A stretch of 64,000 nucleotides of DNA from Euglena gracilis (GCA_039621445.1 CP154954.1:38053703-38117702); one strand, 5' to 3'; positions 3,731 through 53,315 are shown, counted from the first letter of the stretch. Numbers and translations: made by a program. The notes: generated by a model not told the origin, from the sequence alone.

Positions 3731-3743
3731 TACAACCTTCCGA

Positions 3744-12365: not shown

Positions 12366-12399
12366 TGGACAAGGGCTGTCCCAACACACTGAGCCGAGG

Positions 12400-13325: not shown

Positions 13326-13329
13326 TCAG

Positions 13330-21716: not shown

Positions 21717-21742
21717 TCTTTCTTGGTGTCTATTTTTTTTCG
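21717..21742 (+). other. Spliced-leader exon copy (Euglena type)
   Basis: tctttcttggtgtctattttttttcg matches 23/26 nt of ACTTTCTGAGTGTCTATTTTTTTTCG. Confidence 0.8.
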
Positions 21743-21861
21743 ACATATCACATGGCCGAGAAGTGAAAGCCCCTGGAGGGGTTCAAGTTACAAGTATTGG
21801 GCAAGTTTGAAGTCCCTGGTGAAGTTCAAGTTCAAGTGAAGTACAAGACGTGGAGACCGAC

Positions 21862-24800
21862 ATGGGAGAAAAGACCAGAAGTCTCCCGGAGCAGGTCGAC
21901 AGATGTACAAGCTACCACTGGGGTACAAGTTTTACCCGCCAAGTACAAGTCAAGGCCAGTGGTGGTGAGAAGCTGCAGAAGCCCATCATGCTGTCCAGGG
22001 CTTCTCAGCCCTTGTGGCCTGCTGAGGCCTTTACAGTTTATCTGGTTTCCTTGGGCCTGAAAAGGCCCCCCCAGCCACTGGGCCTGAAAAGGCCCCCCCA
22101 GCCACTGGGCCTGAAAAGGCCCCCCCAACCACTGGGCCTGAAAAGGCCCCCCCCCCCTGCCACTGGGCCTGAAAAGGCCCCCCCTGCCACTGGGCCTGAA
22201 AAGGCCCCCTCAAACATTTGTTGTCTGTTTCCATTTGTCGCCTGGGACACATTTACATTCTTCTTCTTTTTGTGTGCACTTGCTCACCTGACAAGGGAAA
22301 AACTTCTGCACTCATTTCAAGTTGCAGCATCCACACCCCCACCCACCAACCCACCAAGCACCCAAAACCCCCATGGTCACAAGCTGGTTCTGCTGACATG
22401 GAGCCCCAAAACTGTCAGATACTGTTCCCTTGTTCCCCAAAAACCCACTCTGCAGTTTTGGGAACCAAAAAGTGCTCTGCAAACCCCTGGAGATTCCATT
22501 TTGCTCAAAACTGCCAGGCCCAATTTGCTGAAAGCCACCCAAGCGACACAGAAAGTCAAAGCCTCTGTTTCCCCAAAAGCTGCCAGACACACTTTCCTCC
22601 ACGCAACCGGAATAACCCCAGAGCCCCAACCGCCCATTTCCTGCAGACCCCCGGAACTGGAGTTTCAAAGGAAAAGGGATAGCTGGCCCAAACGCATGCC
22701 CACCAAGAAGCGGCAAAACCCCAGCACTTGCACCGGTCACCACAGTCGCTTGGGGCGCGGGGAAGGAATTTTGTCCTGTGGTGACATTCAGCCAAACCCA
22801 GGCCCCGCAGTTCCCCCACAGACTGAAATTGACTTCAGCGAGGATCCAGCGAGGGCTGTCGGCTTCTTGATGGCAACTGCCTCGGTCCCACCCACCCTTG
22901 CCCCACTCTTGGAAACCTCTTCGCAAGGTGGCCGGAATCTACAACAGCTCCTTCTGGACCTCATTGGGGGTGACCCAGCTCAGAGCGAACAGCCTTTGAA
23001 CCCTGCCTCGGCCCCATTGCCACACAGCGTCGCAATGAACATTGATGCCGCATCCCACCCCCTCTCATCACCATGCCCTGACCTTCATCCAACTTGGGAA
23101 GAAATCGCCCACGATCTTCGTGGGTCAATCAGCCTTATCCCTCGCGGGGCCATCCAAGCAGTGGCCGAGGTCTATTGCACACTCTTGCGCCGCCTGAACG
23201 AACAAAGCACCTGGGAAGCCATGCACGCCCTTTGGTGCTTCCCAAAGGCAGTGTTGGCACCCTTTGGCCGTGGTGGGCGCGGTCACTGGGCACGTCTTGG
23301 CCACATCCTGCAGGCTCGAGCACGACAATACCTAAGCCGCCCGACGCTGGAGAGTTGGGAGGACACTTCCCCTCCAGTGGAAGAAACTAACGCACGAAAG
23401 AGACCACGTACTAGACTGGCTGCCCCGAAAGAGGAAGAAGTAACAAAAGAGGATTTTGTCTCCAGACTAGAACGACTGGTCGGCAGGGGTGCTGTATCCA
23501 AAGCGTGCAACCTGTTGACTTCCGATGGTGTTCAAAATCCCGACAACCACTTGGTACGTGAACGCCTCCGGCAATTACATCCACATGAACCGCCTCCTGG
23601 ACTTGGCCCAACGACCATGAGACGTTGGCTACCAGCTGCCACTCTTGAGGAAGACATGCAACAACGCCGGACAATAGTGCGAAAGGCAGTCTTCAGCTTT
23701 GGCCCAGAATCCTCACCAGGCCCCTCTGGCTTGAGGCCCGACCACCTTCGGTGTTTGATGGGGCATGATGCAGGTTGCCATGCAGATGACCTTTTGGACG
23801 AACTCACAACCTTCTGTTATCGCACCATTGACAGTGGTTTGCCAAAAGGACCTGCCGCAATCATGGCAGCAGCCAGACTGACAGCCTTGCGAAAAGTGAA
23901 AGCAGCCGAAAACACCGATGATTTCGGCAACCAATGCCCACCTGCTCCAGAAGAAGAGGGAACCAGGCCCATATCAGCGGGCGAATGCCTACGTCGGCTG
24001 GTAGGAAAAGTGATCATGAGACAGGAAGTGGTGAGAACAGCAGTTCGCAACAATCTGCCTGGACAATTTGGCGTTGGCCATTCTGATCCCTGTTCCATTG
24101 TCGCCATTGGGCTTCAGCAGCTTGTCGGCTGTCTCCATCACACAGGTGCTCAGGATTGGGGTGTGTTGCAATTAGACTTTGCAAATGCCTTCAACTGCCT
24201 GCGCCGTGAGGGTATGCTGGACGCTGTTCGAGAACGTTGCCCTGAGATGACAGCATGGATGGAGAGCTGCTACAGTGAGCATTCCACTTTGTACTGTGGG
24301 TTAACCTCCTTCCGCAGCAAAAGTGGTGTGCAACAAGGTGATCCATGTGGTCCTGCGGCGTTCGCAATTGCTGTTCAAAATCTGGTTGAAAAAGTGGGTG
24401 AGCTGGTCGGATGGCAAGCATGGTACCTGGACGATGCCCATCTCGTGGGTACCCCAGCACAACTGGAAACAGCAGTCCGATACATTCTGCGTGAAGGACC
24501 CCTCATTGGGGTTTCCCTGAATATATCCAAGTGTCGGTTGTGGGGACCTGCCTTTGGAATGGAATGGTCCAGCCTCCCAACCAACACAACCCCGCTCCAA
24601 CAAATTCCGGTGCAGGAATATTCTGAAGCAAGTGGCCTCAAGGTCCTTGGACTGCCAGTCTGCCACCTAGCAGGGGGGGCGTTCGCCTCCACTGTTTGGG
24701 CTCCACGAGTCGAAATGGTTCTGAAGGCATGCAATCTCCTACAGCTTGTGCCAAGTGCCCATGTCCAGTACACCCTTTTGCGTCAATGTTTGGATGCATG

Positions 24801-26030
24801 TTGCATCAATGGCCTATTGAGGGGAACTCCACTGCCGCTTGCTGGGGACCAATGCTTATTGCTGAGCCACTGTTTACGAAACACGCTGAGTTGCATCATG
24901 ACAGCACCAGTTGATGACAACCAGTGGTCACAGGCCACCTTGCCACCCGTTTGGGGGGACTAGGAATTAAGGATCCGCAGGAATGCCGACTCGCTGCACG
25001 GTGGTCAGCACAATTGGACTTCCTCCAAAGGGCTGAAACGTTGTTGGGATTTCCGGACTTCGTAATCCGCAATATGAAACCACCAGATTTTGACTCCGCA
25101 CTGACATTGCTGAAGATCTTTGGAGTTGAAGGTCAACCCCTGCAGGCCTTAACAGATGACTCCACCCGTGCAACCCAACTACCACGAGAAATGGTGTCAC
25201 AGAAACACTGGGGGAACATCTGCTCAACGCTGCACCAAAAGAAACTGCAAAAGTCCCTGTCCGGATCCGATGCCATTCGATTTTCCTGCCAAACAAGGCC
25301 TCGTGCCATGGCCTGGACGTGTGCAGTCCCCTCTGCTGGCACAAAAACCCTTGTTCCCACGAAAGAATTTGTTGCCCTCCCCCAATGGACGCTTGGCGCT
25401 CCTGTGGTAAAAACAGAAGAGAGCCACTCTCCCGGATGTCCACGATGCATGAGCCCACTTGACACAGCCAGCCACCACCTCGTCTGCTGCCACCGTAACA
25501 ACCTCGTTCGGCGGCACGGGGCAGTGCAAAGCTTTGTCCTGAACCTGGCACAGCGAGCTGGCTTTCCTGCACGTCGAGAAGAAAAAGCTGAGGACGGAAC
25601 TCGACCGGGTGATGTTTTCATCACTCGATTTGACGCAAATGGACCCGCAGCCATTGATGTCACAGTTAGACACCCACTAGCACCCTCCAGGTCACCTCCA
25701 ACTCAGGTGGAAAATTGGCACATTCGACAGGAAGAAGACAAAATCGCCAAGTATGGGGACCCTTGCAAGCGACGAGGCTGGAAATTTATCCCACTGGTGA
25801 TGGACTGCTACGGTGGCATGAGTGAAGCAGGCAAAAGATTCGTCTCCACATGCATCCGCCACCAAACAAGCCAACATAACGGCTGGGAGAGGCGGGGTGT
25901 GGAGGCCAGTGCATGGCAGGGACTTGGAATGGCTTTGATGCGCGAGCTGGCAAGACAACTGGCATGGGGACAGTGCCCTGAGCAACTACTTGATTGCAAT
26001 AGCGGTGGTACGCATTACCCGTACTTTTGA
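21862..26030 (+). CDS. RT + CCHC finger + restriction-like endonuclease polyprotein, one frameshift near 24945
   Basis: QLDFANAFN, GVQQGDPCGP, WYLDD; CPRC..HLVCC; RPGDVF..IDV..EEDKIAKY; 2A-like GILSCGDIQPNPGP at 22753-22806. Confidence 0.9.
22053..22207 (+). repeat. Six tandem GGGCCT-GAAA-AGGCCC hairpins (~27-nt period)
   Basis: Directly visible in the sequence. Confidence 0.9.
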
Positions 26031-26962
26031 GTGTGACTTCATACAGTGCACCGACCACCTCTACCACCTTCGGTGGCCCACACAGAGCAATGGCCATGAG
26101 GCCAGCTTTCTCACCTCCACTCTCGGACGGCTCTGAAACCACCCCAGGCACAAATCAGCCAATCTGCCAATGACACAAACACGCCAACAGTGGCAAGCAA
26201 AGCACACACTCCCCCCCCACCTCCCCCACCCGCCGTATATATTGAAGATGGGACTTTCCCATTTTCCTCTAACCATTGACCTCGGGACGGGCACGGCACT
26301 CCGTACAACCTTTATGTACTTTACACCCATAGTATCTACCGGCGACCTGTGGCCGCACAGGGAGTCATGAGGAGTTTCTCCTTGTGGCGAGGGCCAAAAG
26401 AGACATATCCCTGGGCCCGGGGCACGGTCTGGGTGAAGCTGTGCTACCCGCCGTGATGATGATGGCGTCGTTCCCTCCTCTCTTCCTGCGCCCTGTCCGC
26501 CAGGTCCCACACCCTGGAAAATGAATCTGGCCATTATTCCGTATGTGAGAACCCAACTTTCAACCTGGAAGAAAAATCCAAAGTGCAAAGATATTTCTCC
26601 CCTGTCATTCCAGATCACAGGCCAGTTTAACCAACCACAGGATCACACACTGGCTCGCACAAGCTTGCAAACAAACGGTCATTCACCTTTCGGGAGGCGC
26701 AGGGGCTATGTGCGGTCATAGCGACTCCTCGCACACACACTCCCCCCCCTTTTCAGCGCTCAGACAGACCTTGAATTCCCCCCCCTCCCGTGGGGATGCC
26801 AAGAGGCACATTTCTTCCGCCTCGGCAGGAGGCACCCAAGGACCTGCCCTTCTCCTCACTCTTCACATTGTTCGCGGGCTGAGTGGACTTACCACGGGAA
26901 GCCTCACCCCCCCCTTCAGCGGAGTGGGTGTTCTTCCCGCAGGTTTCCCGGACCCCCCAACA

Positions 26963-29640
26963 GGGATAGCTTTTCCGTCTAGGGGGTTTAGGTACGGTTT
27001 GAAATCGTCCATATGGACGTCCTCAATCCCGTTGGGCAAGGCAACTTTATATCGCCCGCTACTTCCTAACCTGTCCAAAATTTCGCATGGGCCGAGCCGA
27101 AGAGGACGTAGCTTGGAAGATTGCATGCGGGTGCGGTTATTCCGTACCCACACGCGGTCACCTGGACTATACACAGGTGTGTTGAAATTTTGTAAAAACG
27201 ATTTCCGTTTGTTGGAATGAATTTCTGTGATACGTGATTGGACTGCAGAGCGGAGTGATTCCACTTCTGCAAACCACGTTTCACAGCTAACACTACTTCG
27301 GGAGGGTCTCTCCGAGGGGATATCCCCTGTGGCCGGAGGGTCTCGTCCGAAAACAATTTCGTACGGTGAGTGTGGTAATACCAACCCTGGCAAGGTATTG
27401 ATGTAAAATAAACACCAATGAAGAATGGATATCCAATTCTTACCCGAGTCAGCCAGTGAAAGGCGAAGCATATTGACAACGGATTTCACGGCTGCCTCAG
27501 CTCCACCGTTGCCTTTCGGGCGGTATATAATGGACAAATGCTGATCAATGCCGAGTAAACCGCACAAAGTTGTGAAAAACCGCGAAGAGATCAAGTGATC
27601 TTGATCATTCACTATTTCGTTCGGTAAACCCATTAAGCAGATTCATTTCTCCAGGAATATGGATGCCAAAATTTGGGCTGTCAACCCTGCTTTCCGGCAT
27701 GGAATGGCTACTATATACCCACTCAGCCGACTGACGACAACGAAAACGTAATCGTAAATTTTGTCATCTGATCCTTTGCAAGGTTCAAGTTCCAGAAACT
27801 CCATGCAGAGGGACGTAAAAATGTCCGGTGGTACGGGGAAAAAATCCATCGTACCAGGGGGGGTACCTCTGCGCGGGTTCACAGCCTGACAAATTTGGCA
27901 CCGCTGCGAAATTTGCAAACAGCGCGAATATAAATATTTTTCACTCAGGGTTGTGCAATACCTGCGACCCACCAGTGAAAGAAGTTTGGGGGCCCCAGGG
28001 TGACCATGGTTGTGATAGCTCAAAATCACATCATCAACCAGGTCTTGGGGTATACAATATTTATAACCAGAATCATTTCGGAAAATAAGTCGCAATGGTG
28101 ATAGAGAGTAATTCTCTATGGACTCACCATTACGAAGTCCATTCACAATGGTACTATATACAGGGTCACGCGAATAATCCCATTCGCGGAAAAATAGGGG
28201 GGTAGGAGTTTCCGTACGCGTAATGCGACGGGGTCCGGCAGTGCGTCCACGCCGGCGCCTTCCACGCAATAGTGAAATGGCAATGCTGCGATACACCCGG
28301 GAAACGGGTGGTGAATCGAGCATGTTGTCGGCAGCGTCGCATCGACGTGCGAACTGGTCAGCCTCATGGCTGCCATGAAAAGTCGCATCACCCTCATCCG
28401 GGTTCCCAGGATAATACCAGGGGGCTCGGCTGAGAGGATCCGCCACTTTTTGCGTATGACCTGGGGTATATACTACCACCAGGTTAAACTGGCTCAAGAA
28501 CTCATGCCATCGGCATCTTCTGCCCACTGATGACATGGCCTTGTTCAGGTCCTCGGTATACCAGTGTTGAAGGCTCTCATAATCCGTCAACACCAGTATC
28601 TGGACCAGGCTGCTGGCTATCCAGCTGCGGATTTTCTGGAGAATTAGCACAATGGCATATGTCTCCTTTTCGCGAATGCTCCATTTAACCTGTCCTTTCC
28701 CATTGTCGCCCTGTAGCTTCCTGCTGAAGAAAGCCACAGGTCGGAGTTCATTTGCCGCATTATGCTGGCTAAGAACACCGCCAACAGCGTAATCGCTGCT
28801 GTCGACCTCCAGGACGTACGGCTTGTATGGATCCGCGATATCGAGAACCACGTTCTCGAGGAGCAAGTCCTTGATTTTATTCAAGGCCTCGCGCATTTGG
28901 TTATCCAAATGACTTTTGCGTTATCGGGTGTCCGATTTTTAAGTTGTCGGGTTAGGGGTACCGCGATTTTCGCGAAATCTTTCATGTAAATCGCGTAGTA
29001 TTGGGCTAATCCCAAAAATCCCTTTAAATGCGTTAAGGTCTTAATGACCTCAGGAGTCCATTTTTTAATGGCCTCCATCTTGCTGGGTGCGGCTTTACGC
29101 TGCCCGTTGCTCAGGATATGCCCGCAAAACTTAATAATTTTGCGAAACAGGTGCATTTTGGAACCCTCGACAAAAAGCACATGCTTTTTGAACGCGGATA
29201 ATACCGCCCGCACATCGCGATAATGCGGTTCGAGGATATCCTTGCCCGATTTCGCGGATGGCGGTTGGGTTCCCACCAGTACATCATCGATGTACACCAG
29301 AGCAAACGGTAATTCGCGCAAAACCCACTGGATCATGCGTTGAAACATGGCTGGGCCATTCTTAACACCCATAGGGAGTACCGTCCATTGGTACACACCC
29401 TTGGATGTCACGAATGCCGTGTACGGTTGTGAATCAGGGTGCAAATGCATCTGATGAAAACCGTCTTCTAGATCAAAGATTGACCACAACCGGTTATCCG
29501 ATTGTTTGGCGATCAAATCTTCGATCAGCAGTAACGGGAAGGGGTCATCCTTCGTTTGGGAGTTCAGGTACCGGTAATCCAGCACCAGCACCACTTCCGC
29601 TGGATGAGCTTCTCAATCATCTCGTTGAGAGCTTGTTCGC
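26963..29640 (-). pseudogene. Ty3/Gypsy pol (RT, RNase H, integrase), frameshifted and 5'-truncated
   Basis: FDLEDGFHQM, PMGVKNGPAMFQR, YIDD; VDSSDYAVGGVL, FFSRKL, EKETYAI; HNHGH..CQIC; IVNDQD, PKGNGGAEAAV. Confidence 0.92.
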
Positions 29641-30490: not shown

Positions 30491-30517
30491 ACTTTCTGAG
30501 TGTCTATTTTTTTTTCG
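30491..30517 (+). other. Spliced-leader exon copy (Euglena type)
   Basis: actttctgagtgtctatttttttttcg is a perfect match apart from one extra T. It is followed by the CRE leader motif, not by a GT donor. Confidence 0.88.
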
Positions 30518-30795
30518 CATATCACATGTCGGACAAGTGAAAGCCCCACCAGGGGTATAGTTTGAAGCTCCGAGTTCGACAAACTGTGGCATTTCATGAG
30601 AAGGCGTTGGAGCCGAGACAGCAGAGAGGAGGATGAAGGAGAAGGTTTCCTTGAAGCAGATGAGTATGAGAACTATCTGAAACGCAGGTGGGGTTCTTCG
30701 TATGTGATGTGAATTTTTTGGCGTTTTTTGAATTTTTTTGTAAACAAAATGGTTGCTTTTAGGAGCATGAATAATCATTTTTTCTCATTGTCAGC

Positions 30796-31925
30796 ATGAA
30801 AAAATTCCCCGGTGGAGTTGGAGATTCTCCAAGTCCTCTCCATCAGAAAGTGCACATCCTGGAGCTCCGAAAGGATTTTATATGCGAATATATTTTATAT
30901 GCCCAGAACGACCTCGCCAGCTGCGTTGGGAACAGAAGGAAGCTGACAGGAAAAGAAGAGCTGAGTACTGGGGAAGACAGACCAGAAGTCGCAGCAGAAG
31001 CCCTGACAGAAAGAGATTCAATGTTTAACGTGGTGGAAACCCTCCAGACAGGAGGAGTGCAGCTGAGTTCCCTCCAGACTGGAGGTGGCCTGACCAAGAG
31101 AGACAGGTCAGAGATTCTTCTGCACAGAGAAGACCCCTGCAGCAGCAGCAGGAGTATGAGTAGCAGTTGGGAGACTACCCAGCACAGAGAAGACCCCTGC
31201 AGCAACAGCAGGAGTTTGAGCAGCTGGAGAGAGACTACCCAGCACAGAGAAGAGCCCTGCAGCAGCAGGAGTATGGGCAGGAGAGAGAGTACCCTGCACA
31301 GAGAAGGTCAGACACTGTACATCTGCCATCTGGGGTTATTCCATGGACTACATTTTATCAACTGCCTCAGCCTTCTCCCAGTTTGTACTCCTCTGCTGCA
31401 GCATCTGCCACAGGTCATCAAGTACCCCATCCCCAGTCTGTGATGTATACACCAGCAGCTGCAGCCACAGCAGGCCTTTCAGGACAAGCTGCAGTTTTTC
31501 CTGGCCAGGGCCAGACAATGTGTGGCCAGAACCAGATGTATATGACTCCCCAGCCTGTTTACTATGTGGACCCCTCTGGGGCAATGTCTGCAGACCTACC
31601 CTGGTGGAAGTACCAGCTGTTGATGGGCCATTCGGTGGGGCACAATGCCATCCCCCCAGGAACTGTCAACACCTCAGCAGCAGTGTCCTCTGCCCAGCCA
31701 GCCTCTGGAGGGCCTGGGGTCAGCATCCCCCCCCCTCCTTACCAAGAAGGAGGAGGAGCCAAAGCCATTCAGGGAGAGAAAAGGAGGACTGACAGCTCTG
31801 GAGCCTCAGCCTCCACATCAACAGCCTCCAGGGCCGAATCCTCTTCTATTTCCTCATCAGACAGTGATGACAAGGAGTTGTTGGACTTGCTGAAAGAAAG
31901 GCGACGTAAAAGGAAAGAACAGTAG
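30796..31925 (+). CDS. Low-complexity ORF(s) of unknown function downstream of the SL-headed leader
   Basis: Overlapping ORFs 30796-31443 and 31167-31925, with a 60-bp tandem repeat at ~31120-31310 and a basic C-terminus (KERRRKRKEQ). No RT motifs. Confidence 0.35.
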
Positions 31926-33212: not shown

Positions 33213-35281
33213 AAGAATTTTTGCTGTCTGGCAGTCTTACGGGGGCCTTAAGGCCGAAAAGTAACAAGTTGGGGCTATTATTTCGGTGTGCGCGCTGTAC
33301 GCTGTGCGTCTTCTTACTGGCGGCATATACCGCTGTGAAGTCTTCACAGTGCAGCGCGAGCACGGTGTTGTCGCCGGGGTATCCCCAGAGGCGTATACCT
33401 CAGAATAGCGGGCAGTAGCCCTAAAAACTGTAGATTTGGCATTTGTGCCTTGGGTGTGCAGCCTGTAGGCTGAAGGGTTTGCATTAGCCAAAAATAATGG
33501 GGGGGTAGGCTTTATCGCCCAGAAACATTGCCTTGTGGAATATGCATGGCACAAAAATACTACTGGGTGTATACCCGAATAAAAAAATTTCGGCATATTG
33601 CCAAAAAGATCATACTGAGGTGTACAACCGCAGAAAAAATGCGGAATTGTGGCAGGCTGCTGCCAATTCACAGAACAACTGTGGTTGGTGTGGCTTATAC
33701 CACTTTGAAAAACCGCAAATGAAATGTGAATGCACATAAAAGGATGGAACATTGTTCCAGTGCGGTGAAATTCATCACAAAAAGCTGGATTTCACCATTT
33801 TTGAGCTATGATTCTTATAAACCTTGCAGCATGACACCATTGGTGTTGCACATGATGAAAATTGGGTCCTCAAAATTATATCAGTAAGGGGGTCCCACTG
33901 AGTAAAGTGGGGGGGGTCCGATTATATCGGTAATGGGGGTCCCCCTAAATAAAGTGGGGGGGGGGCAAGAATGCCGTTAGTGCGGTAAGCATAAAAAAAA
34001 AATACTGCAAACATGACAAAATCTCATCATTAGTGACTATGCCACTGAGAAATACTGACTTTTGTCAGATTTTTAGGGAAATCCCTGTCAGGATTAAGGG
34101 CAGAAATGCAGATTCTTCGTCGAGAATTGCATTTTTGTCACCAAAAGTGCAACTTTGTTGCGTTTTGAGTCATTTAAGACTGCAATTGCCAAGTGCACAT
34201 AGTGCTTGTTGAGAGTGTCCAATAACACTGCAGGTTTGTTGTTGTACAGATTTTGGGATTTGGGTGTCTAATAACACCACATCACCCAAAAAGCTGTAAA
34301 ATTGTGCAAAAATATCGCAAAAAAAGCAAAAATACGCTTAAAAATGCAAGTAAAAAATGTCTATGACATCTTGAGCAAAGGAAAAATTGCCATTATCAGC
34401 ATATCCCTTTGCATTCCATTCTGGCATAGTGCCTCATGGTCACTCCCATTAGGGATATGAGTGCCAGAACGGGGAAAAAAATCACCAAAAATTGCAGAAA
34501 ATCAATGATTTAAATGAAAGTTTGCACATAAGTGCTCCTAAAAATGGTTCTAGTGAGTTGAAATGGCTCCAAATTGTGGGCTATAGCCCTCTGAACTGTA
34601 CCAGGCCTAATAGGGCGTACAGAGGGGGTAATGGGCAGAATGCTGCCAAAGGAGCTTAAAAATGGCCATTAGCCAAACTGGTAACGAATGGTAATTAGCC
34701 ATCAGAAACGATGTGGGGAACAGTGTAGAAGCCTTTCAGGCTGATTTGCCAGTCTGGTACATGTTCGTACAAGATTTGGCCCCATATTTGGCTTTACCAA
34801 TAATACCCACGGTGGGTAGCACAGCTTCACCCAAACCGTGCCCCGGGCCCAGGGTAACGTCTCTTTTGGCCCTCGCCACAAGAGGAACCCCCTTGTGACT
34901 CCCTGTGCCGCCACAGGTCGCGGGTAGCTTATACTCTGGGTGTAATGTACAAAAGAGTGCTGAGGGATACTTGTTCAGGGTGCGGAGGTCAGCGGTTAGC
35001 GGAAGATGAGCAAAGGTCACCTTCAATATATATCGGGCGGGGTGGGCGGGGTGGGGGCGCGTTTGTTCCTCTTTGCCACCGGATGGCGTGTCTGTGCCGG
35101 GTTTTGGCTTTATTTGTTTCTCTGTTTTGTTTCTCTGCGTGTGCGTCTGTCTGACCCATTGATTTGCCTTTGGCTTGGCGTGTGGCTCTGCTCAGGGGGC
35201 TCAAGGCCTACAGACAGAATATGGTGAGTTTGAGTTTGCCTTTGGCTTGGCATGTGGCCCTGCTCAGGGGGCTCGAGGCCT

Positions 35282-38200
35282 TCAGACAGAATATGGTGAG
35301 TGGGCAGAAGACAAGGTGATCTCATCCTTGGAAGAATACAAGCTCCAAACGAGCTGTCTGCTGATTTCTCTGATCAGTGTGAAGGACAGGCCTTGCCAAA
35401 TATCTGCTTCTGCGGCCCGCCGTTGCCAACCTTCCCGCTGCCCCAGAAGGGCTTTGAGGAGGGTGGCCATCAAGGAGCGCGCTTCTTGTCCCATGCCCCC
35501 GTAGCAATCCATGACGAATGGCATCAACCGCCAGCCCAGTCGTCGGCATGTTGCATCATATTTGGCATGCTTTTCAGCTTCCTGTCGTGTTTGCCATTGT
35601 GACAGGCTCTCTGCACTTCGCAGCGGATGACTTTGTGCAAGGGTGTGGCGGACTGTCACATCCACTGCAACGGGTCCATCACTGTCCAAGCGAGGAATGA
35701 AGATATCCCCAGGGCGGGAACGGTCATCGGCTCGTTGTTCTTTACGGGCTGTAAATCCTGCCTTCTGTGTTGTGGTTGTCAGAAAATCTTGGACAGCCCC
35801 GTGCCGCCGGGTAATGAAGTTTGATTTGCAGCAAACGAGGTGATGTCCGAGAAAATCTGATTGTCCAAAGCATTTGGGACAGAGGTTCGGATCGGATTCC
35901 GTTGGTGTGAGAGTCATTCCGAGGGACCAACGAAGTGTGCAGCGGAATTCAGCCGTGGGTAACAGGGTGCGGAGACCTTGAGATGGTGTCAAAGCGGCCC
36001 ATGCCATAGCGTGTGGTTGGCATTGGCTTGCAAAGCGTACAGCATCAGGTCCATTCAATGTGTCCCGAAGTGTTTTCTGGCGGGCAAGCATGCTTTGCTG
36101 ATTCCACCAACGTTGTGAATTGTGTGGAGACTGTGCCTGCGGGATCAAGTTTTTGTCACTGGCCCATTGTGGCAGTGGGACCATTTGACCGAGTTCATTG
36201 AGGGCTGTCCGTAAACAATCGTCAACGTCTTTGGGAAGGATGTCCATGGCAGCGGGCAGGCCCAAGACAGAGGGAGCTCTTCGACAGAAGTCCACCACTT
36301 GAGACAATCTGGCGGGCGCACGTTGAAATAGTGGATCGGAGATTCCCAGTCCACCGCATCTGATGGCCAGGGAAACTTGCAACCATTCTTCTGGGGTGCA
36401 AGGGGAGCCGACCATGCTGCTGAATGTTTCCCGAATAATTCCCGACAATGTCTTGCATGCCGCTGTTGCAGAGGCGATTTTGCAGGCGCGCAAGAGGTCA
36501 TTCACTTTGCAAGCGGATAAACAAAAACGAAGCAAGGTGAATTGCACATGCGATTGAGGTAGGTGCTGAAGTACTGTGCAGGAACGTCGGATGTCTTCAA
36601 TGCGCTTATTCCATACTTCTTCACAGAAGCGGTCATCTTGGGGGTGGTGGACAGGGACCCCCAAAACTTTCAAACCTGAACCGGCAACAAAGGCGGTCAG
36701 TGGTATTTGATGCAAGGGGCTGTCCTGTGGCGTTCCCGGAGGAATGCAAGGGACACCTTCTGTTGATGTGAACGCTGGTCCCCACAAGCGACATTTTGCG
36801 GGGTTCACGGCCAACCCAAGCGCTGCTGCCTCGCGAATCAGAAATACAAGGGCATTGTGTAGTTGGGCGGGTGATCCCAGCAGATGGGCGTCATCCAAAT
36901 ACCATCCCTGCCATTCGACCAAGGGGGAGAGGCCCTCACACAGGTCTTGTACGCCCCAGGCGAAAGCTGCTGGTCCACTTGGGTCGCCTTGCTGAGCCCC
37001 CCTCTGGGAAGGCAGACAATGGTTTCCACAATACAGCTTGCTGTGTTGGGCGTAGCACGAATCCAGCCAAGGGCACACTTCTGGGCATCGTCTGCGGATG
37101 GATTGCAGGATTTTTTCTCGTGACAAAGAGTTGAAGGCATTCCTGAAATCCACTTGAAGCAGCCCCCATCGATTGTCTCTGTCCGAGTGCAGAGTGTCCA
37201 CCATTTGTTGGATTCCCATTGCGATCAGTGGACAAGCGTTCGGCACACCAACGCCACATTGTGGAGGACTCAGTTCTTTCAAAGCGTTTACCACTGTGGG
37301 ATGACGCATGAGACATTTGCCAACCAATCGGCGGAGGGTTTCACCTGCTGCGATTGGGCGAGTGTCTTCATCACACACCGTGTGTTCCACAAGGTTTCCA
37401 AAAGCATCCTCTTCCATTGCTCTTTGTTTGTTCTGTTTTCGCAGAGGTGTCAGCCTGGCGGAGGAAAGAATTGGGGCCATGCTGGGGTGAACACCGTTTG
37501 TAATTGCCCGACAGATGAAGGTATCCAGCACCTCGAGGAGGTCTTCTCCACAAGCCCCTGGGTAGTCTCCAACCATGGCCTTGAGGTGGTCAGGTCTCAG
37601 GCCAGAAGGACCCGGCGCGGATTCCTTTGGGAACCCGAAGATGGCTTTGCGCAGATTTTGTAATCGCTCTTTTGTGCTTTCCGGGTCTGAAGGAAAGGTA
37701 ATCGTTTGGGAAGAATCGGACACTGGGATGTGCGGTGGAGGCTCTGGTGGGTGAAGGTCACGTAGCCTTTGGATCACTTTTGGGTCACTGCTGTTTTGGA
37801 CCCCCTCAGAGGTGAGCTCTCGGCAGGCTTTTGAAATAGCCCCGTGGCCAACAAGGCTTTCAATGCGGGAGAGGAACCGTTCTTCAGTTGCCTTGGCTGC
37901 CAGTGCTGTTTTTTGCCTTGTCTGTCTGCCTTGTTGCTTTTGTGGGAGACTGGAGTCCAGCCATGAATCAAACACAGGGCGGGTGAGATACAGGCGAGCG
38001 CGTTCTGCAATTTTTCTCCCCACCATCGCCCAGTTTGAACGCCCGCCACGCTGCAAAGGACAAAGCACCGCTTTGGGGAAGGCCCACAAGGCGTGCAGGG
38101 TTTCCCAGCCAGGGTCCCTGTTGAAATGCTTCATCAGTTGCAGGTAGGTTTGATTGACATTCAGGAGGGCTCCACGTGGCAGGTATACAAGGGTGCCTCG

Positions 38201-38911
38201 ATCGTCAAAAGAAATTTCCTCAAAAGAGGGATGAAGGGATGTTGGGCATGGAGCAGAGAATGGCGTAACCCCAGCAAGGTGATTTTGGCCAATGGGGCTT
38301 GGTGGGGGTCTAGCTGGGGCTGGTGACGATGCTGCTGCGGTTGTTGCCACAGAGGATGAAGAGCTGGCACCCAAAGGGGGGTTGGAGAAGTTGGAGAAGT
38401 TCAGGAAAGGCGTCGCTTGATTTGCTTGCATCCACATGGCTCCAACATCTGACGGGGGGAAGGATCCTGGTCCTTGTGTGCCAATTGGGTTCGCCATGAT
38501 GACCGTGGAGCACATTGAAGGGAGGCCCTGTTGGCCAAAGAACAACGGACCCGGCAGATTTGGGAACCAAGATCCCCTTTCCAAGGGTGGCGCTGCGGGT
38601 GGTGTTGGTGCGGTCGGGGTGATGGAAATTTGTGATGCTGGCGCCATGTCAACGTCCTCAATCGACACCAATGGGGGCTCTGCGGGTGGTGGTGCGGCTG
38701 GAGGGATGGAGATTTGTGATGCTGGCGCCATGTCAATATCCTCACCCGAAACAAATGGTGGGTCCGTAGCTGGCCCGGGGTTGCTTTCAATGTCCCCGCA
38801 GGTGAGTAAAGACCGACCCCGGCCTGCCCCCCCCGATGCTGCCAGGGTGGGCTGTGGGCTGTCTTTTGCCGGCGTGAAAGGCACCAGCACTTTTCTTTGT
38901 TTGGCTGACAT
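35282..38911 (-). CDS. Intact 1209-aa RT + CCHC + RLE protein with an N-terminal 2A peptide
   Basis: GRGRSLLTCGDIESNPGP; LQVDFRNAFN, GAQQGDPSGP, WYLDD; CPKC..HLVCC; RPGDIF..VDV..EAEKHAKY. Confidence 0.95.
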   Translation of the reverse strand: MSAKQRKVLVPFTPAKDSPQPTLAASGGAGRGRSLLTCGDIESNPGPATDPPFVSGEDIDMAPASQISIPPAAPPPAEPPLVSIEDVDMAPASQISITPTAPTPPAAPPLERGSWFPNLPGPLFFGQQGLPSMCSTVIMANPIGTQGPGSFPPSDVGAMWMQANQATPFLNFSNFSNPPLGASSSSSVATTAAASSPAPARPPPSPIGQNHLAGVTPFSAPCPTSLHPSFEEISFDDRGTLVYLPRGALLNVNQTYLQLMKHFNRDPGWETLHALWAFPKAVLCPLQRGGRSNWAMVGRKIAERARLYLTRPVFDSWLDSSLPQKQQGRQTRQKTALAAKATEERFLSRIESLVGHGAISKACRELTSEGVQNSSDPKVIQRLRDLHPPEPPPHIPVSDSSQTITFPSDPESTKERLQNLRKAIFGFPKESAPGPSGLRPDHLKAMVGDYPGACGEDLLEVLDTFICRAITNGVHPSMAPILSSARLTPLRKQNKQRAMEEDAFGNLVEHTVCDEDTRPIAAGETLRRLVGKCLMRHPTVVNALKELSPPQCGVGVPNACPLIAMGIQQMVDTLHSDRDNRWGLLQVDFRNAFNSLSREKILQSIRRRCPEVCPWLDSCYAQHSKLYCGNHCLPSQRGAQQGDPSGPAAFAWGVQDLCEGLSPLVEWQGWYLDDAHLLGSPAQLHNALVFLIREAAALGLAVNPAKCRLWGPAFTSTEGVPCIPPGTPQDSPLHQIPLTAFVAGSGLKVLGVPVHHPQDDRFCEEVWNKRIEDIRRSCTVLQHLPQSHVQFTLLRFCLSACKVNDLLRACKIASATAACKTLSGIIRETFSSMVGSPCTPEEWLQVSLAIRCGGLGISDPLFQRAPARLSQVVDFCRRAPSVLGLPAAMDILPKDVDDCLRTALNELGQMVPLPQWASDKNLIPQAQSPHNSQRWWNQQSMLARQKTLRDTLNGPDAVRFASQCQPHAMAWAALTPSQGLRTLLPTAEFRCTLRWSLGMTLTPTESDPNLCPKCFGQSDFLGHHLVCCKSNFITRRHGAVQDFLTTTTQKAGFTARKEQRADDRSRPGDIFIPRLDSDGPVAVDVTVRHTLAQSHPLRSAESLSQWQTRQEAEKHAKYDATCRRLGWRLMPFVMDCYGGMGQEARSLMATLLKALLGQREGWQRRAAEADIWQGLSFTLIREISRQLVWSLYSSKDEITLSSAHSPYSV

Positions 38912-39124
38912 TGGGTTGTTTTTTTTCCGAACGGCTGAGTGGGAGCCTGGGGATTGTCAAGTGCATTGCGCTGAGGTGTCCCGTTTGCTGGCCAGCTGAA
39001 CCGGGCAGAACTGGCTGGATGGGGGGCCACTGTTGCAGGCCACAATGTGGAGGAGCATGGTTCGCCCGTGTTGAAACCCCGCGCTATTTTGGCTGGAAAT
39101 CTGCTGAGCCCTTGGGCAAATTTG

Positions 39125-39710
39125 GACAGCGTCGTGGCCGAAGCCGTGGGCCCTGGGGCCACATCTGTGAAAGAGTTTTCTGTGCCTGTTTTGGCTTGAA
39201 AAGTGTTGAGCCCTAGGGCGGCATTTGACAGCATCATGGCTGAAGTCTTGGGCCCTGGGGCCACATTTGTGAAAAACTTTTCAGTGCCAGATTTGGCTTG
39301 AAATGTGTTGAGCCCTGGGGCAGCATTGGACAGCATCTTGGCTGAAACCTTGGGCCCTGGGGCCGAATCTGTGAAAAAAACTTTTCTGTGCCACATTTGG
39401 TTGGAAATGTGTTGATCCCTGTGGCAAAAATTGACAGCATCATGTCAAAGGCCTTGGGCCCTGGGGCGTCATTTGTGAAAAACTTTTCTGTGCCACATTT
39501 GTTTGGAAATGTGTTGATCCCTGTGGCAAAATTTGACAGCATCATGGCAAAAGTCTGGGGCCCTGGGGCCACATTTGTGAAGAACTTTTCTGTGCCAGTT
39601 TTGGCTTGAAATGTGTTGAGCCCTGGGGCAAAATTGGACAGCATCATGGCTGAAGTCTCTGGCCCTGGGGCCAACTCTGTGAAATGTTTATAAGGCCCTG
39701 GGGCCACAGT
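39125..39710 (-). repeat. 102-bp tandem repeat (~5.5 copies; 34-aa unit TEKFFTNVAPGP...)
   Basis: gtgaaaaacttttc recurs at ~102-bp spacing, and each unit contains GGCCCCAGGGCC. Confidence 0.85.
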
Positions 39711-40024
39711 GCGGGTTGGTGTGAACGCTATGTTACAGCACAGGTGGTAAAGCAAAGTATAGTGAAACAGGGATAATACTTCCAGCCAGCTGGTGTAGCA
39801 GAGGATGATGTTGTGCTGCTGTAGCATCCTCAAGGAGATGAACCACTCCAGTGTCTGTACTGTACTGTACTGTAACTCGGGCTTGCACTTCTCTGTCGGG
39901 CTTTGCTGCTGTCAAGACCAACAAACTTCAATATTTCAATGACTTGAGTTGTAGGTTGGAACTTCAGGTAGTTCAAAGCTTGAACCCCACCAGGGGCTTT
40001 CAGTTGTCCCACATGATATGCGAA

Positions 40025-40049
40025 CGAAAAAAAATAGACACTCAGAAAG
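40025..40049 (-). other. Spliced-leader exon copy (nt 2-26, perfect)
   Basis: Minus strand reads CTTTCTGAGTGTCTATTTTTTTTCG, followed by an extra TTCG. Confidence 0.9.
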
Positions 40050-41159
40050 ATATTTGGCTTTTGGCCAAATTGGCTGGGCCTAATTCAAAATTTCACGATC
40101 TCTTCAAATAAGAGTACCGTGCAGAGTTACAGCGATCTGATAGCATCGCTGGACGGCTCGTCCAACGAGCTTTCGAATGAGGGGTAACATGGCCTATCGG
40201 CCAGCTACAGGCGCTGAGATACGTCTTTGATCTTTTGACTGTGTGAGTGAGCTTTTGCTATGAGCGTCCATAATTTATTCTACAAAGACAACTTTTGGTT
40301 TCTATCTCATAGGCACTACTACATACAGTCAAAACCTCATGGCACGAGGTGCCAGAAATTTTGAAGCTTTTGTGGTGGTTTTGAGGCTATGCCAAAGTGA
40401 CACTTATGCAAATCTGCATAAAACTAGCCTATTTGGCTTGTTTTGGCCAATTCAGCCACTTTCAGCCATGTAATATGGCTTTTTGTGCCATTTTTTGAGG
40501 TCCTATGGACTTTTCACTTTATAATATGGATTTGTGGACCTTTGGTCCTTTTGGTCCTTGCAATTTGTGCAAATTGGTCCTATGGACCCATGGACCACGT
40601 GGGTAATGGCCCATAGGCCTTGCACATCATAGGGTGTATTGGTCACATAGACCTAAGGCTAAGTGGTCAAGTCCACAAAAATGCATGTTTGAATGAATTT
40701 TCTTCATTTTTTTTTTGGGGGGGGCAACTATGTTGCAGATTTTCTCAAGGAATTCAGCCCATTTCCCTATCGGGATTCACTTCACTTCTGCAATAAGAAA
40801 AAGGCCATTTTGTTCACAAAATAGCTGTTCTTCACAAAGCTGTGCAAGTTCATGGGAAAAATGCAGTATTTGCAATGTATCCCAAAAACTTATCACACAC
40901 CTTGTGTTTTTTGCAAATAACTTTGAAGTTGGCGCAATTGTGCGCTTGAATGATCAAAACACCTTTGGTGTTCGCCAATTTGACCAACAAGTTCGTGGTC
41001 AAAGAAGGAGGGGATGGCTACTTTTGTTGCTTAAGTAAACCAAATCTGCATTTTGAGCATGTGGTTTGCAAATCAACAACAAAAGTGCCATTGTGAAATA
41101 TGTACACAAACATCTTTGGGACTTATTCCCGAAAGAATATGGTTGGGTTGGGCAGATAC

Positions 41160-46374: not shown

Positions 46375-49300
46375 AAACCCAACGGGCGTCATGTTTGACG
46401 AAAAATGCCGGGAGCCGAGGTCTGGTCCGCCCAATTCCCCGGAAAATGCTCCACTGCAGGAAACCTCTTTCAGCAGCTGGAAGAAAAAATTCCTGCATCA
46501 GCGGCAGGAGCGACGGCAGCAGGGGGGCACGCTGGTCCACGAGCGGGCGGCACGTAAATTGACCAAAGTCGTGGACCAATGGCAACAGATGGGACGAAAT
46601 CGTGACATCCCGGCCAAGGGCCCTTGGGGGCTGCTTTTTTCTGGTGACATCAACCCCCTGCCTGGACCAACGGCGGGCCCGTGTGGTGAATGTGATCTCC
46701 TGCATGTCTTGGTGGAACAACAAGTACAAGAGATGTTCAAAATACGGGCGGATGAGGAGCCTGCAAAAGGACCAGACGGGACGTCACCTCTCTTTCAGGA
46801 AAGAGAAGCCTTCTGGGTACAGTGCACCCTGTGTGGGTGGTCAAGGCAAACAATAAATTCTGGGTGGTGCTTGTCCCACGTACAGCATTGTGCAGAATTA
46901 CAAAACATTCTTTGCGGCCCGAGAAACACATTGCTGCAGGTGCCAGAAGAACACCTAGCCACAGGCAGGGAAGGTGTGGCTTTCAGCGGTGATGTCCCCC
47001 TGAACCCGGGCCCCAGGAAGGAATCTGAAGCTCACAAAAGAAAAGCACATGGCCATGGGAAAACTGGGCGGGAAGAAGCTGTTCTGACCCATGGTGATGT
47101 GGAGCAGAATCCGGGGCCTATGGAAGGCAGCATGGAGGTGGACTTGGGGGGGTGTCACACCTTACAAGGACCGTGTCCCAAAGGTTTGCGCCATGCATGG
47201 GATGACATAGCACATGACCGAAGGACCACGTTGACATTGATCCCCAGAGGAGCGCTGGGGGAAGTGGCACGAACCCTGACCCTCTTGTTCAGACGATTAC
47301 GACAAGAAGGCTCTTGGGAGGCCTTTCACTCTTTGTGGTGTTTTCCAAAGGCAGTCCTGGCAAGCACTGGTCAGGGTGGACGATCCCACTGGGCCAGAAT
47401 TGGGCGGCTGCTGTGTACCAGAGCCAAGGCGTACCTGGAAAAAGACGTCCATGAATGCTGGGAGTCGTCCAGGCCGTCGGAAGCGAATTTCGGATCCAGC
47501 GTCAAAACCCGATCAGCAAAAAACTAAAGAGGAGGAAATCCAACAAGAAGCCTTTCTCAACAGAATGCAGAAACTGGTGGAAAGAGGGGCAACGGCAAAG
47601 GCGCGTCAGGCAATGTTGTCAGACGGAGTCCAAGATGCAAATGATGCAAAAATTCGTGAGCGTTTACGTCTGCTTCACCCATCAGAAGATCCGCCCGGGA
47701 AAGGGCCCCCCGATGGAAGAGTGCGCCTGCCAGTCCCTGAGGGACAAGAAGGAGACGCCCACATGAAAAAGGCCGTGAGACGGGCCATCCTGTCCTTCAA
47801 AAACGAAACAGCAGGAGGACCGAGCGGGCTGACCATCTCAAAACATTGATATACGCACAGGCTGCGGGCTGTGGTGATGATTTACTGGAAGAAATCTCCG
47901 CCTTTGTCTTCTCGGCAATCCAACAAGGACTGCCTTTGGAAATGGGGTCCATCTTGGCAGGAGCACGACTGACGCCGTTGAGAAAGAAGAAACCACAAAC
48001 AGATGCTGCCGGTAATGTGATGCTGCATACGGACAACGATTTGCAACACGAAGGAACCAGGCCAATTGCGGCAGGAGAAGTTTTAAGACGGTTGCTTGCC
48101 AAAGTTCTGTTAAAAGAAGCCACTGTACGAAACACTCTGATTGACGGGCTGCCTGGGCAAGTCGGTGTAGGCCATTCTGACGCTTGTGCTCTCACCAGTA
48201 TTGCACTGCAACAAATTGTTCAAGGACTGCAAAAGGCAGGGAAAACAGAATGGGCTGTTCTGCAGCTGGATTTTGCAAACGCCTTCAATCAATTGAAACG
48301 GGAACCCATGTTACATCAAGTGCGACAGCAGGTACCACACATGACAGCTTGGACTGAATCATGCCATGGTTCACATTCCCCTTTGTATTGTGGAAACACA
48401 AGCCTGAGGTCCAAAACGGGAGTTCAACAAGGGGACCCTTGTGGCCCGGCTCTTCTCTGCATTGCGGTGCAACCTTTGGTCAACAAAATTGCAGAAATGG
48501 TGCCATGGCAGTGCTGGTACCTGGACGACTGCCATCTAATTGGATCCATGGAACAGCTGGATCGTGTGGTGCGCATGCTTTTGGCAGACGGTCCTGCGAT
48601 TGGGGTCAGTCTGAACATGGACAAATGTCGGCTGTGGGGCCCAGCCGTCAATGATGCCTTTCGCAGATTGCCACAGGGAAGCAGTGTGTTGCAACGAATA
48701 CCGGCAACATCCTTTGTGGAGGGATCTGGAATCAAAGCCCTGGGGATACCTGTGACGTACCCGGGAGATGACACGTTTGCGCGATCCATTTGGCAGGACA
48801 GATTGAAAGCTTGTGAAAAATTGTGCTACTTGCTGCAGTTCATTCCTTCCGGCCACATTCGTTTCCACCTGTTGCGCCATTGCATTCCCAGCTGCAAAGT
48901 AAATGATCTTCTACGAGGAACACCGCTTGAACTCTTCTGAAGATATGGTACGGCTCTTCTCTGCCCTGGTCCGTGACAGTTTGAGCAATATTGCACGAAG
49001 ACAGCTCACTGAAGCTCGATGGGAGCAATCCACCATCCCCATTCGACTGGGAGGCCTGGGCCTGCACGATGCAATAAAGACCAGGCCAGTGGCCAGATGG
49101 GCTGCTATTTTGGATTTCTGCAAAAGAGCAGAACACAGTGTCTCTTTCCCGAAAGAACTTGAGCTATTACCATCAGACTTCGTTCTTACAGGTCGCACAG
49201 TCGAACAAATCACGGGGGAGAGTCATTTGACAACTTTGATACTACAGGACTCCAATCGGATTCCTCACCTGGGGAAAGTGGAAAGTTCCCAGAAATTCTG

Positions 49301-49904
49301 GAACGACAAGCTCTCTGAGAAACGAGGAGCTGACTTGGTAACGCATTCCACCGGGGCTGACAAGGTGCGTATTTTGAGCCAACAGAAACCTCATGCATTG
49401 GCGTGGGTGGCAGCAAACCCTTGTGCAGCAAAAAAGACATTGATGCCCCCAGGTGAATTCCGAGCAGTTCTACGATGGACTCTGGGATGACTGTTGTGGC
49501 TCTACACAAAGGTTTGGAGGCAAAGTGTCCACGATGTGAGACAGTGATGGGTGATCAAGGGAATCACCTGGTTTGTTGCACAAAAAAACAATTTGGCACG
49601 GCGACATGCAGGAATTCAAAACTTCATCCTGCAGATGGCACAGGCGGCAGGCTATACTGCTCGGCGTGAAGAGGGCACTGGAGATGGAAGACGACCTGGG
49701 GAGGTTTTCATCACTAGGTTCGATGCAAACGGCCCGGCTGCAATAGATGTCTCAGTGCGGCATCCACTGGCGCCGTCCCACCCAGTGACTGATCAAAGTT
49801 GGGAACGCTGGCATGAAAGACAGGAGAAAGAAAAAGTGACAAAGTACAAAGATGTATGCAGCAGGCTGGGATGGTCACTTGTGCCCCTGGTCCTGGATTA
49901 TTTT

Positions 49905-52815: not shown

Positions 52816-52820
<5 letters not shown>
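49905..52820 (+). repeat. ~870-bp tandem triplication of the RLE C-terminus plus 3' UTR
   Basis: Units start at ~49905, 50775 and 51648. The third is interrupted by ~51760-52086. Confidence 0.88.
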
Positions 52821-52855
<35 letters not shown>

Positions 52856-52868
52856 TATATATATATAT

Positions 52869-52913
<45 letters not shown>

Positions 52914-52952
52914 ATATATATATATATATCTATATATATATATATCTATATA

Positions 52953-53001
<49 letters not shown>

Positions 53002-53072
53002 TTCTCTCTCTCTCTATCTCTCTATATCTCTCTCTCTCTCTATCTCTCTCTCTCTCTCCTCTCTCTCTCTCT

Positions 53073-53118
<46 letters not shown>

Positions 53119-53146
53119 CCTCTCTTTCTCTCTCCCTCTCCCCCTC

Positions 53147-53212
<66 letters not shown>

Positions 53213-53315
53213 CTCTCCTCTATCTCCTCTCTCCCTCTCTCTCCCTCTCTCTCCCTCTCTCCCTCCCTCTCTCTCATATATATATATGTATATATATCTC
53301 TATACATATATATAT
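52819..53315. repeat. (TA)n/(CT)n compound microsatellite
   Basis: Directly visible in the sequence. Confidence 0.97.

Follow-up and report, generated by a model that had tools for sequence, protein, structure and literature searches.

The window analysed here is a single 64,000-nucleotide (nt) stretch of Euglena gracilis DNA (GCA_039621445.1 CP154954.1:38053703-38117702). It contains an apparently intact retrotransposon on the minus strand (copy 2) and, on the plus strand, an older member of a divergent lineage (copy 1). Both begin with a DNA copy of the spliced leader (SL), the exon that most Euglena mRNAs receive by trans-splicing, and both SL copies lie inside target-site duplications at places that are not SL RNA genes. 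A third SL head (copy 3), which an earlier note on this DNA had missed, precedes an open reading frame (ORF) that does not resemble a transposon. The coordinates of all features are collected in Table 1.

Spliced leader copies inside target-site duplications

According to an excerpt of PMC6242988, the E. gracilis SL has 26 nt, ACTTTCTGAGTGTCTATTTTTTTTCG, in agreement with the 26-mer assumed in the earlier note; the SL primer sequence is also printed in a portion of PMC5654406. The window was scanned with an SL 25-mer, allowing up to 3 mismatches, which returned three matches compared with none in each of 100 shuffles. A looser search (up to 6 errors) added one poor match only (51936-51912). 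All three matches, which are the SL heads of this analysis (n = 3), run into the same conserved sequence (CATATCA..ATG..TGAAAGCCCC..GGGG), referred to below as the head. The SL ends precisely at the exon end (..TTTTCG) in the copies and is followed by A and CATATC in copy 1 (A+CATATCACATG..), by TTCG and CATATC in copy 2 and directly by CATATC in copy 3 (CATATCACATG..). GT follows in none of them, and the earlier claim that the SL exon leads into element sequence and not into a GT intron holds for all three. The first SL base is nt 1 in one copy, nt 2 in another and nt 2 or 3 in the third. Each head in the window carries one SL, with neither a partial second SL nor a relic-SL tandem of the dinoflagellate type. 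Elsewhere in the window, GAGTGTCTA followed by A9 (53340-53360) agrees with the SL core over 9 nt but continues with an A-run in place of the T-run, probably by chance, and 52820-53290 is taken up by a long microsatellite in which (TA)n gives way to (CT)n.

In case of copy 2, the perfect match to SL nt 2-26 and the perfect duplication described earlier were both recovered (25/25 and 12/12), and the duplications abut the SL on one side and the 3' tail on the other. Contigs from four sequencing runs were compared with a 5.7-kb stretch at a likeness of at least 90%. All four runs consist of contigs, so transcript starts and ends cannot be read from them and uncovered parts are uninformative; the loose ends considered are 6 per run, with a further 361 beyond these. 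One contig of the DNA run links 34780 to 40060 with 13 letters between, which corresponds to the flanks plus one copy of the duplication. Since its length matches in this way, the contig is a diverged paralogous empty site of copy 2. By the contig comparison, the DNA on either side of copy 2 is repetitive as well. The target of copy 2 is an inverted repeat, ATTTGGC-CAAAA-GCCAAAT (40052-40070), whose right arm is covered by the duplication, and TTGGC or TTGGTGGC stands directly upstream of copies 1 and 3 as well. A shared motif of the TTGGC type near the copies may indicate a target preference.

For copy 1, the reported 23/26 SL match at a 7-bp duplication and the SL-free empty site near 15852 were borne out by an alignment of the flanks. 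The paralogous segment 15105-16143 matches the left flank (15105-15852 with 20964-21711) and the right flank (15872-16143 with 26474-26745). The suggestion that these elements had inserted outside SL genes was likewise upheld, with no SL-gene promoter or intron sequence in the flanks and no SL in the empty site of copy 1. Since the duplications enclose the SL and the copies begin at its nt 1, 2, and 2 or 3, it belongs to the inserted unit and to the RNA that was reverse-transcribed.

Table 1. Positions of the SL-headed copies and their parts in the window (nt, counted from the first letter of the window).
Feature	Position	Strand	Basis
Copy 2, full-length SL-headed non-LTR retrotransposon, apparently intact, 5254 bp	34796-40049	minus	12-bp duplication and open ORF
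Copy 2, DNA copy of SL nt 2-26, 25/25, reads CTTTCTGAGTGTCTATTTTTTTTCG	40049-40025	minus	SL match
Copy 2, target-site duplication, element 5' side, ATATTTGGCTTT on plus strand	40050-40061		identical to 34784-34795
Copy 2, target-site duplication, element 3' side	34784-34795		12/12 identical to 40050-40061
Copy 2, conserved 5' head	39979-40024	minus	70-77% identity to heads of copies 1 and 3
Copy 2, 102-bp tandem repeats in 5' untranslated region, 6 copies	38986-39786	minus	repeat family D2
Copy 2, single intact ORF, 1209 amino acids, stop codon within range	35282-38911	minus	ORF call, RVT_1
Copy 2, predicted 2A-like ribosome-skipping peptide SLLTCGDIESNPGP, near N-terminus	38771-38812	minus	translation
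Copy 2, reverse transcriptase core, contains YLDD	36782-37291	minus	Pfam RVT_1 and translation
Copy 2, CCHC zinc knuckle and PD..D..K restriction-like endonuclease, C-terminal	35570-35881	minus	28-homologue alignment
Copy 2, conserved structured 3' untranslated region, ends ..GCTGTGCTACCCACCGTG	34808-34954	minus	likeness to copy 1 tail, consensus fold
Copy 2, short variable 3' tail GGTATTATTGGT, 12 nt, no poly(A)	34796-34807	minus	differs between copies
Copy 1, older member of divergent lineage	21718-26462	plus	SL, frameshifted ORF, 3' untranslated region, tail
Copy 1, SL	21718-21742	plus	23/25 (GA changed to TG), 23/26 counting nt 1
Copy 1, target-site duplication TGGCGTC	21712-21718 (5' copy), 26463-26469 (3' copy)		last C of 5' copy is SL nt 2
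Copy 1, paralogous empty site	15852-15858		one TGGCGTC, without SL and without element
Copy 3, SL nt 1-26 with 9 T, not 8 (30491-30517), then head CATATCACATGTCGGACAAGTGAAAGCCCC..	30491-30556	plus	SL and head match

Element proteins and classification

The reverse transcriptase (RT) domains of copies 2 and 1 were recognized by Pfam RVT_1 with E-values of 9.6e-11 and 1.2e-10, respectively. The ORF of copy 1 is frameshifted (21823-24963 and 24918-26030) and is followed by the conserved 3' untranslated region (UTR). The two proteins share about 46% amino-acid identity. An alignment of 28 homologues showed that C1011, C1014, H1024 and C1028, C-terminal to the RT, are invariant or nearly so, and that the nuclease motif RP..D..K has a nearly invariant R1066 and invariant P1067, D1084 and K1114. 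The profile of these homologues found its best solved structures in the R2 proteins 9nl3_A and 9dou_A (E ~1e-39, across RT, linker and nuclease), while L1 ORF2p scored 1e-13. Pfam detected no Exo_endo_phos (APE) domain in copies 1 and 2, and a repeat scan found no direct repeats resembling long terminal repeats (LTRs) at the element ends. The target-site duplications measure 12 bp and 7 bp, and each has an empty site. Judged by these features, copies 1 and 2 are non-LTR retrotransposons (long interspersed nuclear elements, LINEs) with a restriction-like endonuclease, of the R2/CRE/NeSL/R4/HERO grade. The hallmark of the CRE clade, insertion into SL RNA genes, was not found: the flanks share only the SL with euglenid SL genes, and the empty site is SL-free. 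The CRE label of the earlier note is provisional: no named CRE, SLACS or CZAR sequence occurs among the 77 homologues, all of which are unnamed or hypothetical or uncharacterised plant and insect proteins. A search of viral contigs with the protein returned nothing. Three of the homologues (P0001, P0054 and P0071) carry a precomputed Dam-type adenine methyltransferase domain (PF05869) beside the RT. These are in line with the accessible part of a 2026 preprint on methyltransferase-bearing retrotransposons, which mentions Euglena.

When the whole copy 2 protein was compared with PDB sequences, the only match was the T2A-type tag on the construct 7p2p_B, at SLLTCGDIESNPGP. This peptide conforms to the 2A motif D(V/I)ExNPGP, and NPGP sites occur, one to four each, in 18 of the 77 homologues. 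The site near the N-terminus of copy 2 is thus predicted to cause ribosome skipping. A related element at ~46375-50123 contains GDVEQNPGP (47093-47119, plus strand) and two looser sites.

One run of the DNA type contributed 10,939 contigs matching the 5.7-kb stretch, which indicates that the family is highly repeated. Other related RT/endonuclease elements or fragments in the window, 5'-truncated or rearranged and with no visible SL head, lie at 46375-50123 (plus), 57790-60160 (plus), 3250-4929 (minus), 8135-9494 (minus) and 12319-13330. The window is mostly transposon DNA and includes a Ty3/gypsy-like RNase H and integrase fragment (26863-28920, minus).

Conserved head and 3' end

Copies 1 and 2 align at the nucleotide level only in the SL, the first 45-70 nt after it (70-77%) and the last 147 nt (87%). 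Head and 3' UTR are far more conserved than the other untranslated regions, and the 5' UTR outside the head does not align between copies. All three heads contain a 4-codon upstream ORF (uORF; ATG nnn GAn AAn TGA) that starts 7-12 nt past the SL and encodes MWDN (40000-40014, minus), MAEK (21752-21766, plus) or MSDK (30526-30540, plus). A GCCCC-loop-GGGG hairpin with a variable loop follows the uORF. In copy 2 the order is TTCG (40024-40021), CATATC, the uORF ATGTGGGACAACTGA (40014-40000), the hairpin GCCCC-TGGT-GGGGT (39997-39984) and TTCAA. One loose end from a run guessed to be RNA, with 30 letters visible, has a longer uORF variant that would read MENNPGPW. The first 100 nt do not fold more stably than shuffled sequences (z -0.26 to 0.66), and Rfam searches, at the gathering threshold and at E up to 5, returned no family and no ribozyme at the heads. 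Between copies 2 and 3, 25/26 SL positions are identical compared with 39/56 in the adjacent head (Fisher p = 0.008); the same comparison gave p = 0.08 and 0.36, below significance, for the other two copy pairs. The better preservation of the SL favours its renewal, or selection on it, on thin evidence.

Downstream of the head, the 5' UTR of copy 2 extends for ~1.1 kb to the ORF and contains the 102-bp tandem repeats, whose joints are present in the DNA contigs. The ORFs of these repeats have no Pfam match. The repeats are open in two frames and would encode 34-residue units whose last residues, ..(V/D/L)APGP, recall a degenerate 2A terminus.

The 3' UTRs of copies 1 and 2 are 87% identical over 147 nt, and a consensus fold of four sequences has 34 pairs, 3 of them with compensatory changes. 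Among the DNA contigs, 62 loose ends start precisely at 34808, the last conserved base of the 3' UTR. The tails beyond it vary, with GGTATTATTGGT in copy 2, ATGATGA in copy 1 and others at 57671 and 57759, and none is poly(A). These features fit a model in which the RT would prime at the structured 3' end and add or tolerate short variable tails. A 73-nt tail-only copy at 57671-57758 (plus) lies 15 nt past the tail of a deleted copy (56210-57670). DNA contigs repeat this joint, which goes back 70 nt, and the tail-only copy may reflect extreme 5' truncation or insertion beside an existing tail.

Copy 3

The SL and head of copy 3 are followed, within 30491-31925 (plus), by an Arg/Ser/Gln-rich ORF that is not transposon-like and has an apparent GT-AG intron (~30688-30794). 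The ORF belongs to no clear family, with a weak SR-25 match (E 0.005), and we found no flanking duplication of 8 nt or more (two stray 7-mers only) and no 3' tail downstream. Copy 3 might represent a host gene with an acquired SL-head 5' end; other candidates are a chimeric retrocopy and a non-autonomous element.

Spliced leader genes and a probable second SL-bearing family

For comparison with euglenid SL RNA genes, metagenome contigs were scanned with an SL 22-mer, which gave 9 matches in 8 loci. In eight of the nine, GTAT and an Sm-like AATTTTTGG come after the SL, and because of these two features the eight are classed, by sequence, as true euglenid SL RNA genes. The CATATC head is absent from all metagenome SL loci, and the window shares nothing significant with the metagenome SL genes beyond the SL. 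We also considered a derivation of the head from the SL RNA intron and rejected it, since in the three copies the 80-nt stretch behind the SL resembles SL RNA introns no more than shuffled sequences do (z up to 1.7). In one metagenome contig (L003, minus, ~837-790) the SL is followed after 17 nt by a start codon and a long ORF and is preceded by more than 400 nt of unrelated sequence. This arrangement looks like an SL-tagged retrocopy of a gene, and retroposition of SL-bearing mRNA may be general in euglenids.

A second junction was encountered among the homologues. P0051, a protein of 1751 residues with 31% identity to copy 2, starts MTGRRRK-FLSVYFFS-MPTGPP.., where FLSVYFFS is the translation of SL nt 3-26. 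The same eight residues are obtained from copy 2, and in P0051 the methionine follows directly. At least seven codons of unrelated sequence precede the peptide and there is no CATATC head. The peptide presumably reflects an SL in the contig DNA, as a chance match of eight residues is very unlikely. Because it corresponds to the SL followed by a start codon, another family also appears to be SL-headed. A second, distant family would thus carry the SL joined elsewhere, which is what independent acceptor sites would be expected to give. The SL peptide was seen in 1 of the 77 homologues examined, and the N-terminus of P0051 matched only itself in the protein collection. The translated SL and head of copy 2 (72 residues) gave one marginal match (E 7e-4) among 1.84 billion representative proteins. 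Scans for the SL in viral contigs and for SL plus head in prokaryote genomes returned nothing.

Origin of the SL-bearing 5' end

We favour a mechanism in which the SL trans-spliced mRNA of the element is the template for target-primed reverse transcription, and assign it a probability of about 60%. An element transcript, made by readthrough or from an outside promoter, would receive the SL by trans-splicing like most Euglena mRNAs. The mature message would be translated, with a short N-terminal peptide split off at the 2A-like site. The RT/endonuclease would then nick a target that is not an SL gene, priming would occur on the conserved 3' UTR structure and not on poly(A), and the RNA would be copied to within 0-2 nt of its capped end. 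As a result, each full-length insertion would hold a DNA copy of the SL within its target-site duplication. The 5' ends at SL nt 1, 2, and 2 or 3 are what is expected of a complementary DNA that runs to the capped end. Trans-splicing is favoured because the join falls at the exact end of the SL exon in three lineages and because P0051 has the SL at another junction. Further, E. gracilis has outrons with canonical AG acceptors, and more than 70% of its mRNAs are trans-spliced, according to an excerpt of PMC10679874. The trans-splicing step itself, and the spliced mRNA as template, are what we infer. The earlier note had likewise proposed a trans-spliced RNA copied up to the cap and inserted at unrelated targets. 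The SL inside the duplications, the non-SL targets and the exact exon-end join speak for this; its further implication, trans-splicing anew in each cycle, did not gain the same support.

Several observations weigh against this mechanism, and a number of them speak at the same time for a 5' module that is simply inherited. In the latter case the SL would have been captured once or a few times from a trans-spliced RNA and then copied with the element, SL and the ~45-nt head would act as internal promoter, start-site determinant or translation/stability module, and SL-headed copies could be parents. No master copy with a polypyrimidine-AG outron in place of the SL was found in the window, which contains no SL-less head. 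The bases before CATATC in the SL-headed copies are CG, CGA or CGTTCG, never AG. Because there is no AG at the join, SL-headed progeny would be unable to regenerate the same RNA by trans-splicing, and yet two lineages of ~46% identity both keep SL and head. This favours heritability, with descent seemingly via SL-headed parents, or else masters with a different way of spreading. In the predicted fold of copy 1, both altered SL bases are paired with the head of that copy, a weak hint of co-inheritance, and stacks of relic SLs are missing although the SL contains an AG. An inherited module would also account for the conservation of the head, with its uORF and small hairpin, and of the 3' UTR far above the other untranslated regions, and for the SL and head in front of the non-transposon-like ORF of copy 3. 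It has a precedent in Pr77, an internal promoter bound by TBP and SNAP50 in the text available from PMC1874656 and PMC8190864. On the other hand, P0051 has the SL right before its start codon without the head, which suggests that the head is no general requirement and that captures recur. The SL is kept better than the head, which would demand extra selection, and the Rfam scan revealed no ribozyme or other family at the heads. Some contigs of the runs guessed to be RNA also begin upstream of the SL. On balance we regard the inherited module as rather unlikely.

The contigs that might represent RNA are ambiguous and leave the mechanism undecided. Three small runs cover most of the ORF at low depth, with head and tail deeper. 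Their assignment as RNA was a guess, which limits their weight for the trans-splicing mechanism; contigs that join the SL to other coding sequence (loose ends before 40020) back the assignment. By length, two loose ends (64 nt behind 40002 and 79 nt behind 39977) of these runs would fit SL starts of other subfamilies, but with 30 letters visible they were not used as evidence. Three contigs of run X15 pass 139-251 nt from an unrelated flank into the SL. Because of this crossing, at least some RNAs, or contaminating DNA, contain a DNA-encoded SL within a longer molecule, which is a further point against trans-splicing as the source of every SL.

Two explanations would account for old lineages that keep SL and head despite the lack of an AG at the join. 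Rare masters might keep the outron and spread via unspliced RNA or segmental duplication. Alternatively, SL and head might by now have become an inherited module that sets the RNA start, by analogy with Pr77.

A further explanation places master copies in SL RNA genes, right after the exon, from where the SL promoter would start transcription at SL nt 1 and progeny would insert off target. The SL at the extreme 5' end of the copies agrees with such co-transcription. Trypanosomatid CRE, SLACS and CZAR, which have the same type of endonuclease, reside in SL RNA genes, and transcription of SLACS reportedly begins where the SL gene starts. However, the trypanosomatid elements insert inside the exon, whereas in three lineages the join in question coincides exactly with the boundary of exon and intron. 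Such a join is unlikely to have come from insertion into an SL gene because an endonuclease has no reason to pick the exon-end base. The sites of all three copies are unrelated to SL genes, in two cases the SL is enclosed by the duplications, and neither SL gene intron nor upstream sequence lies beside any copy. P0051 has the same exon-end join ahead of a different sequence. We therefore consider this origin very improbable.

Hardly credible is a chimera made by a template switch of the RT onto SL RNA at the end of the first strand, or SL and head as one long leader exon that several transcripts receive in trans: the same 57-71 nt leader does precede three otherwise unalignable bodies and the shared stretch ends exon-like in ..CAAG or ..TAG, but a switch onto SL RNA would bring intron sequence, which the heads do not resemble, no GT follows the SL, and the heads, unlike the SL, diverge by 23-30% from copy to copy, which makes them lineage-specific and leaves no single donor.

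Relation to known elements

CRE1/CRE2, SLACS and CZAR insert site-specifically within the SL exon of SL RNA genes, and the SL pieces next to them are target DNA outside the element. The Euglena copies resemble them in belonging to Euglenozoa, in the order of RT followed by CCHC and PD..D..K nuclease, in the lack of a poly(A) tail and in the close link to the SL. They differ in having the whole SL exon as their first 24-26 nt, inside the duplications and at non-SL targets. R2 is specific to 28S ribosomal DNA, and its 5' end is freed from the co-transcript by a ribozyme. R2 (9nl3, 9dou, 8gh6) is the best solved-structure match (E 1e-39) and shares variable 3' tails and a structured 3' UTR as likely priming signal, whereas the Euglena copies are dispersed, have the host SL as 5' end and show no Rfam ribozyme. 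L1Tc has an N-terminal 2A peptide, and 2A peptides are known in trypanosome LINEs.

In dinoflagellates, a DNA-encoded SL at the 5' end (relic DinoSL) marks retroposed trans-spliced RNA, as described in excerpts of PMC3942190, PMC12014239 and PMC8045281. The Euglena copies likewise have a DNA-encoded SL at the 5' end that stops at the exon boundary. DinoSL retrogenes, however, derive from host genes that were copied in trans, and truncated relic SLs are often stacked in them, while the Euglena copies belong to an autonomous, abundant element with a single full SL and show neither stacked relic SLs nor a poly(A) tail. Pr77 of L1Tc/ingi, NARTc and SIDER is a short (77-nt) 5' terminal sequence conserved across divergent retroposons, as stated in the passages available from PMC1874656 and PMC8190864. 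It is comparable to the Euglena SL and head as a short conserved 5' terminus on otherwise divergent elements. Pr77 is not an SL and yields unspliced transcripts, and a promoter role of the Euglena SL and head is hypothetical. For Diplonema, SLACS-like RT gene models are reported in a part of PMC10161547.

We found no description of SL-headed retrotransposons in Euglena in the literature, although supplementary transposon tables of Euglena genome papers might list them. SL-gene-specific elements, SL-tagged dinoflagellate retrogenes and 2A peptides in trypanosome LINEs were each known separately. The literature searches brought up no account of the combination: an autonomous, very abundant LINE whose full-length copies start with the complete host SL at ordinary sites.

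Conclusions

LINEs without a promoter of their own are known to obtain a defined, translatable 5' end from internal promoters, from ribozymes or by insertion into host genes for co-transcription. The present family might represent an abundant autonomous LINE without a self-made 5' end. Host SL trans-splicing would define and cap its RNA, a task otherwise left to an internal promoter or ribozyme, and each new copy would open with the SL as its first 24-26 nt. In its boldest form, this proposal makes the DNA-encoded SL and head a self-sustaining 'pre-spliced' module, with SL-headed copies again giving SL-headed RNA, and one that host genes can receive, as in copy 3. We offer it tentatively, at somewhat less than even odds.

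Relatives of SL-gene-targeting elements seem to gain their 5' end by a spliced SL, or by a kept DNA copy of it, and to spread massively to ordinary sites. The occurrence of several 2A sites in LINEs of this endonuclease type may merit separate attention. For annotation, an SL encountered in Euglena DNA does not always mark an SL RNA gene. If the proposed origin is true, the SL would be a built-in tag for full-length insertions in Euglena, by which retrotransposition could be dated and counted. The copies would also allow a natural test of how the SL acts in translation, and host genes might acquire SL-like 5' ends from them.

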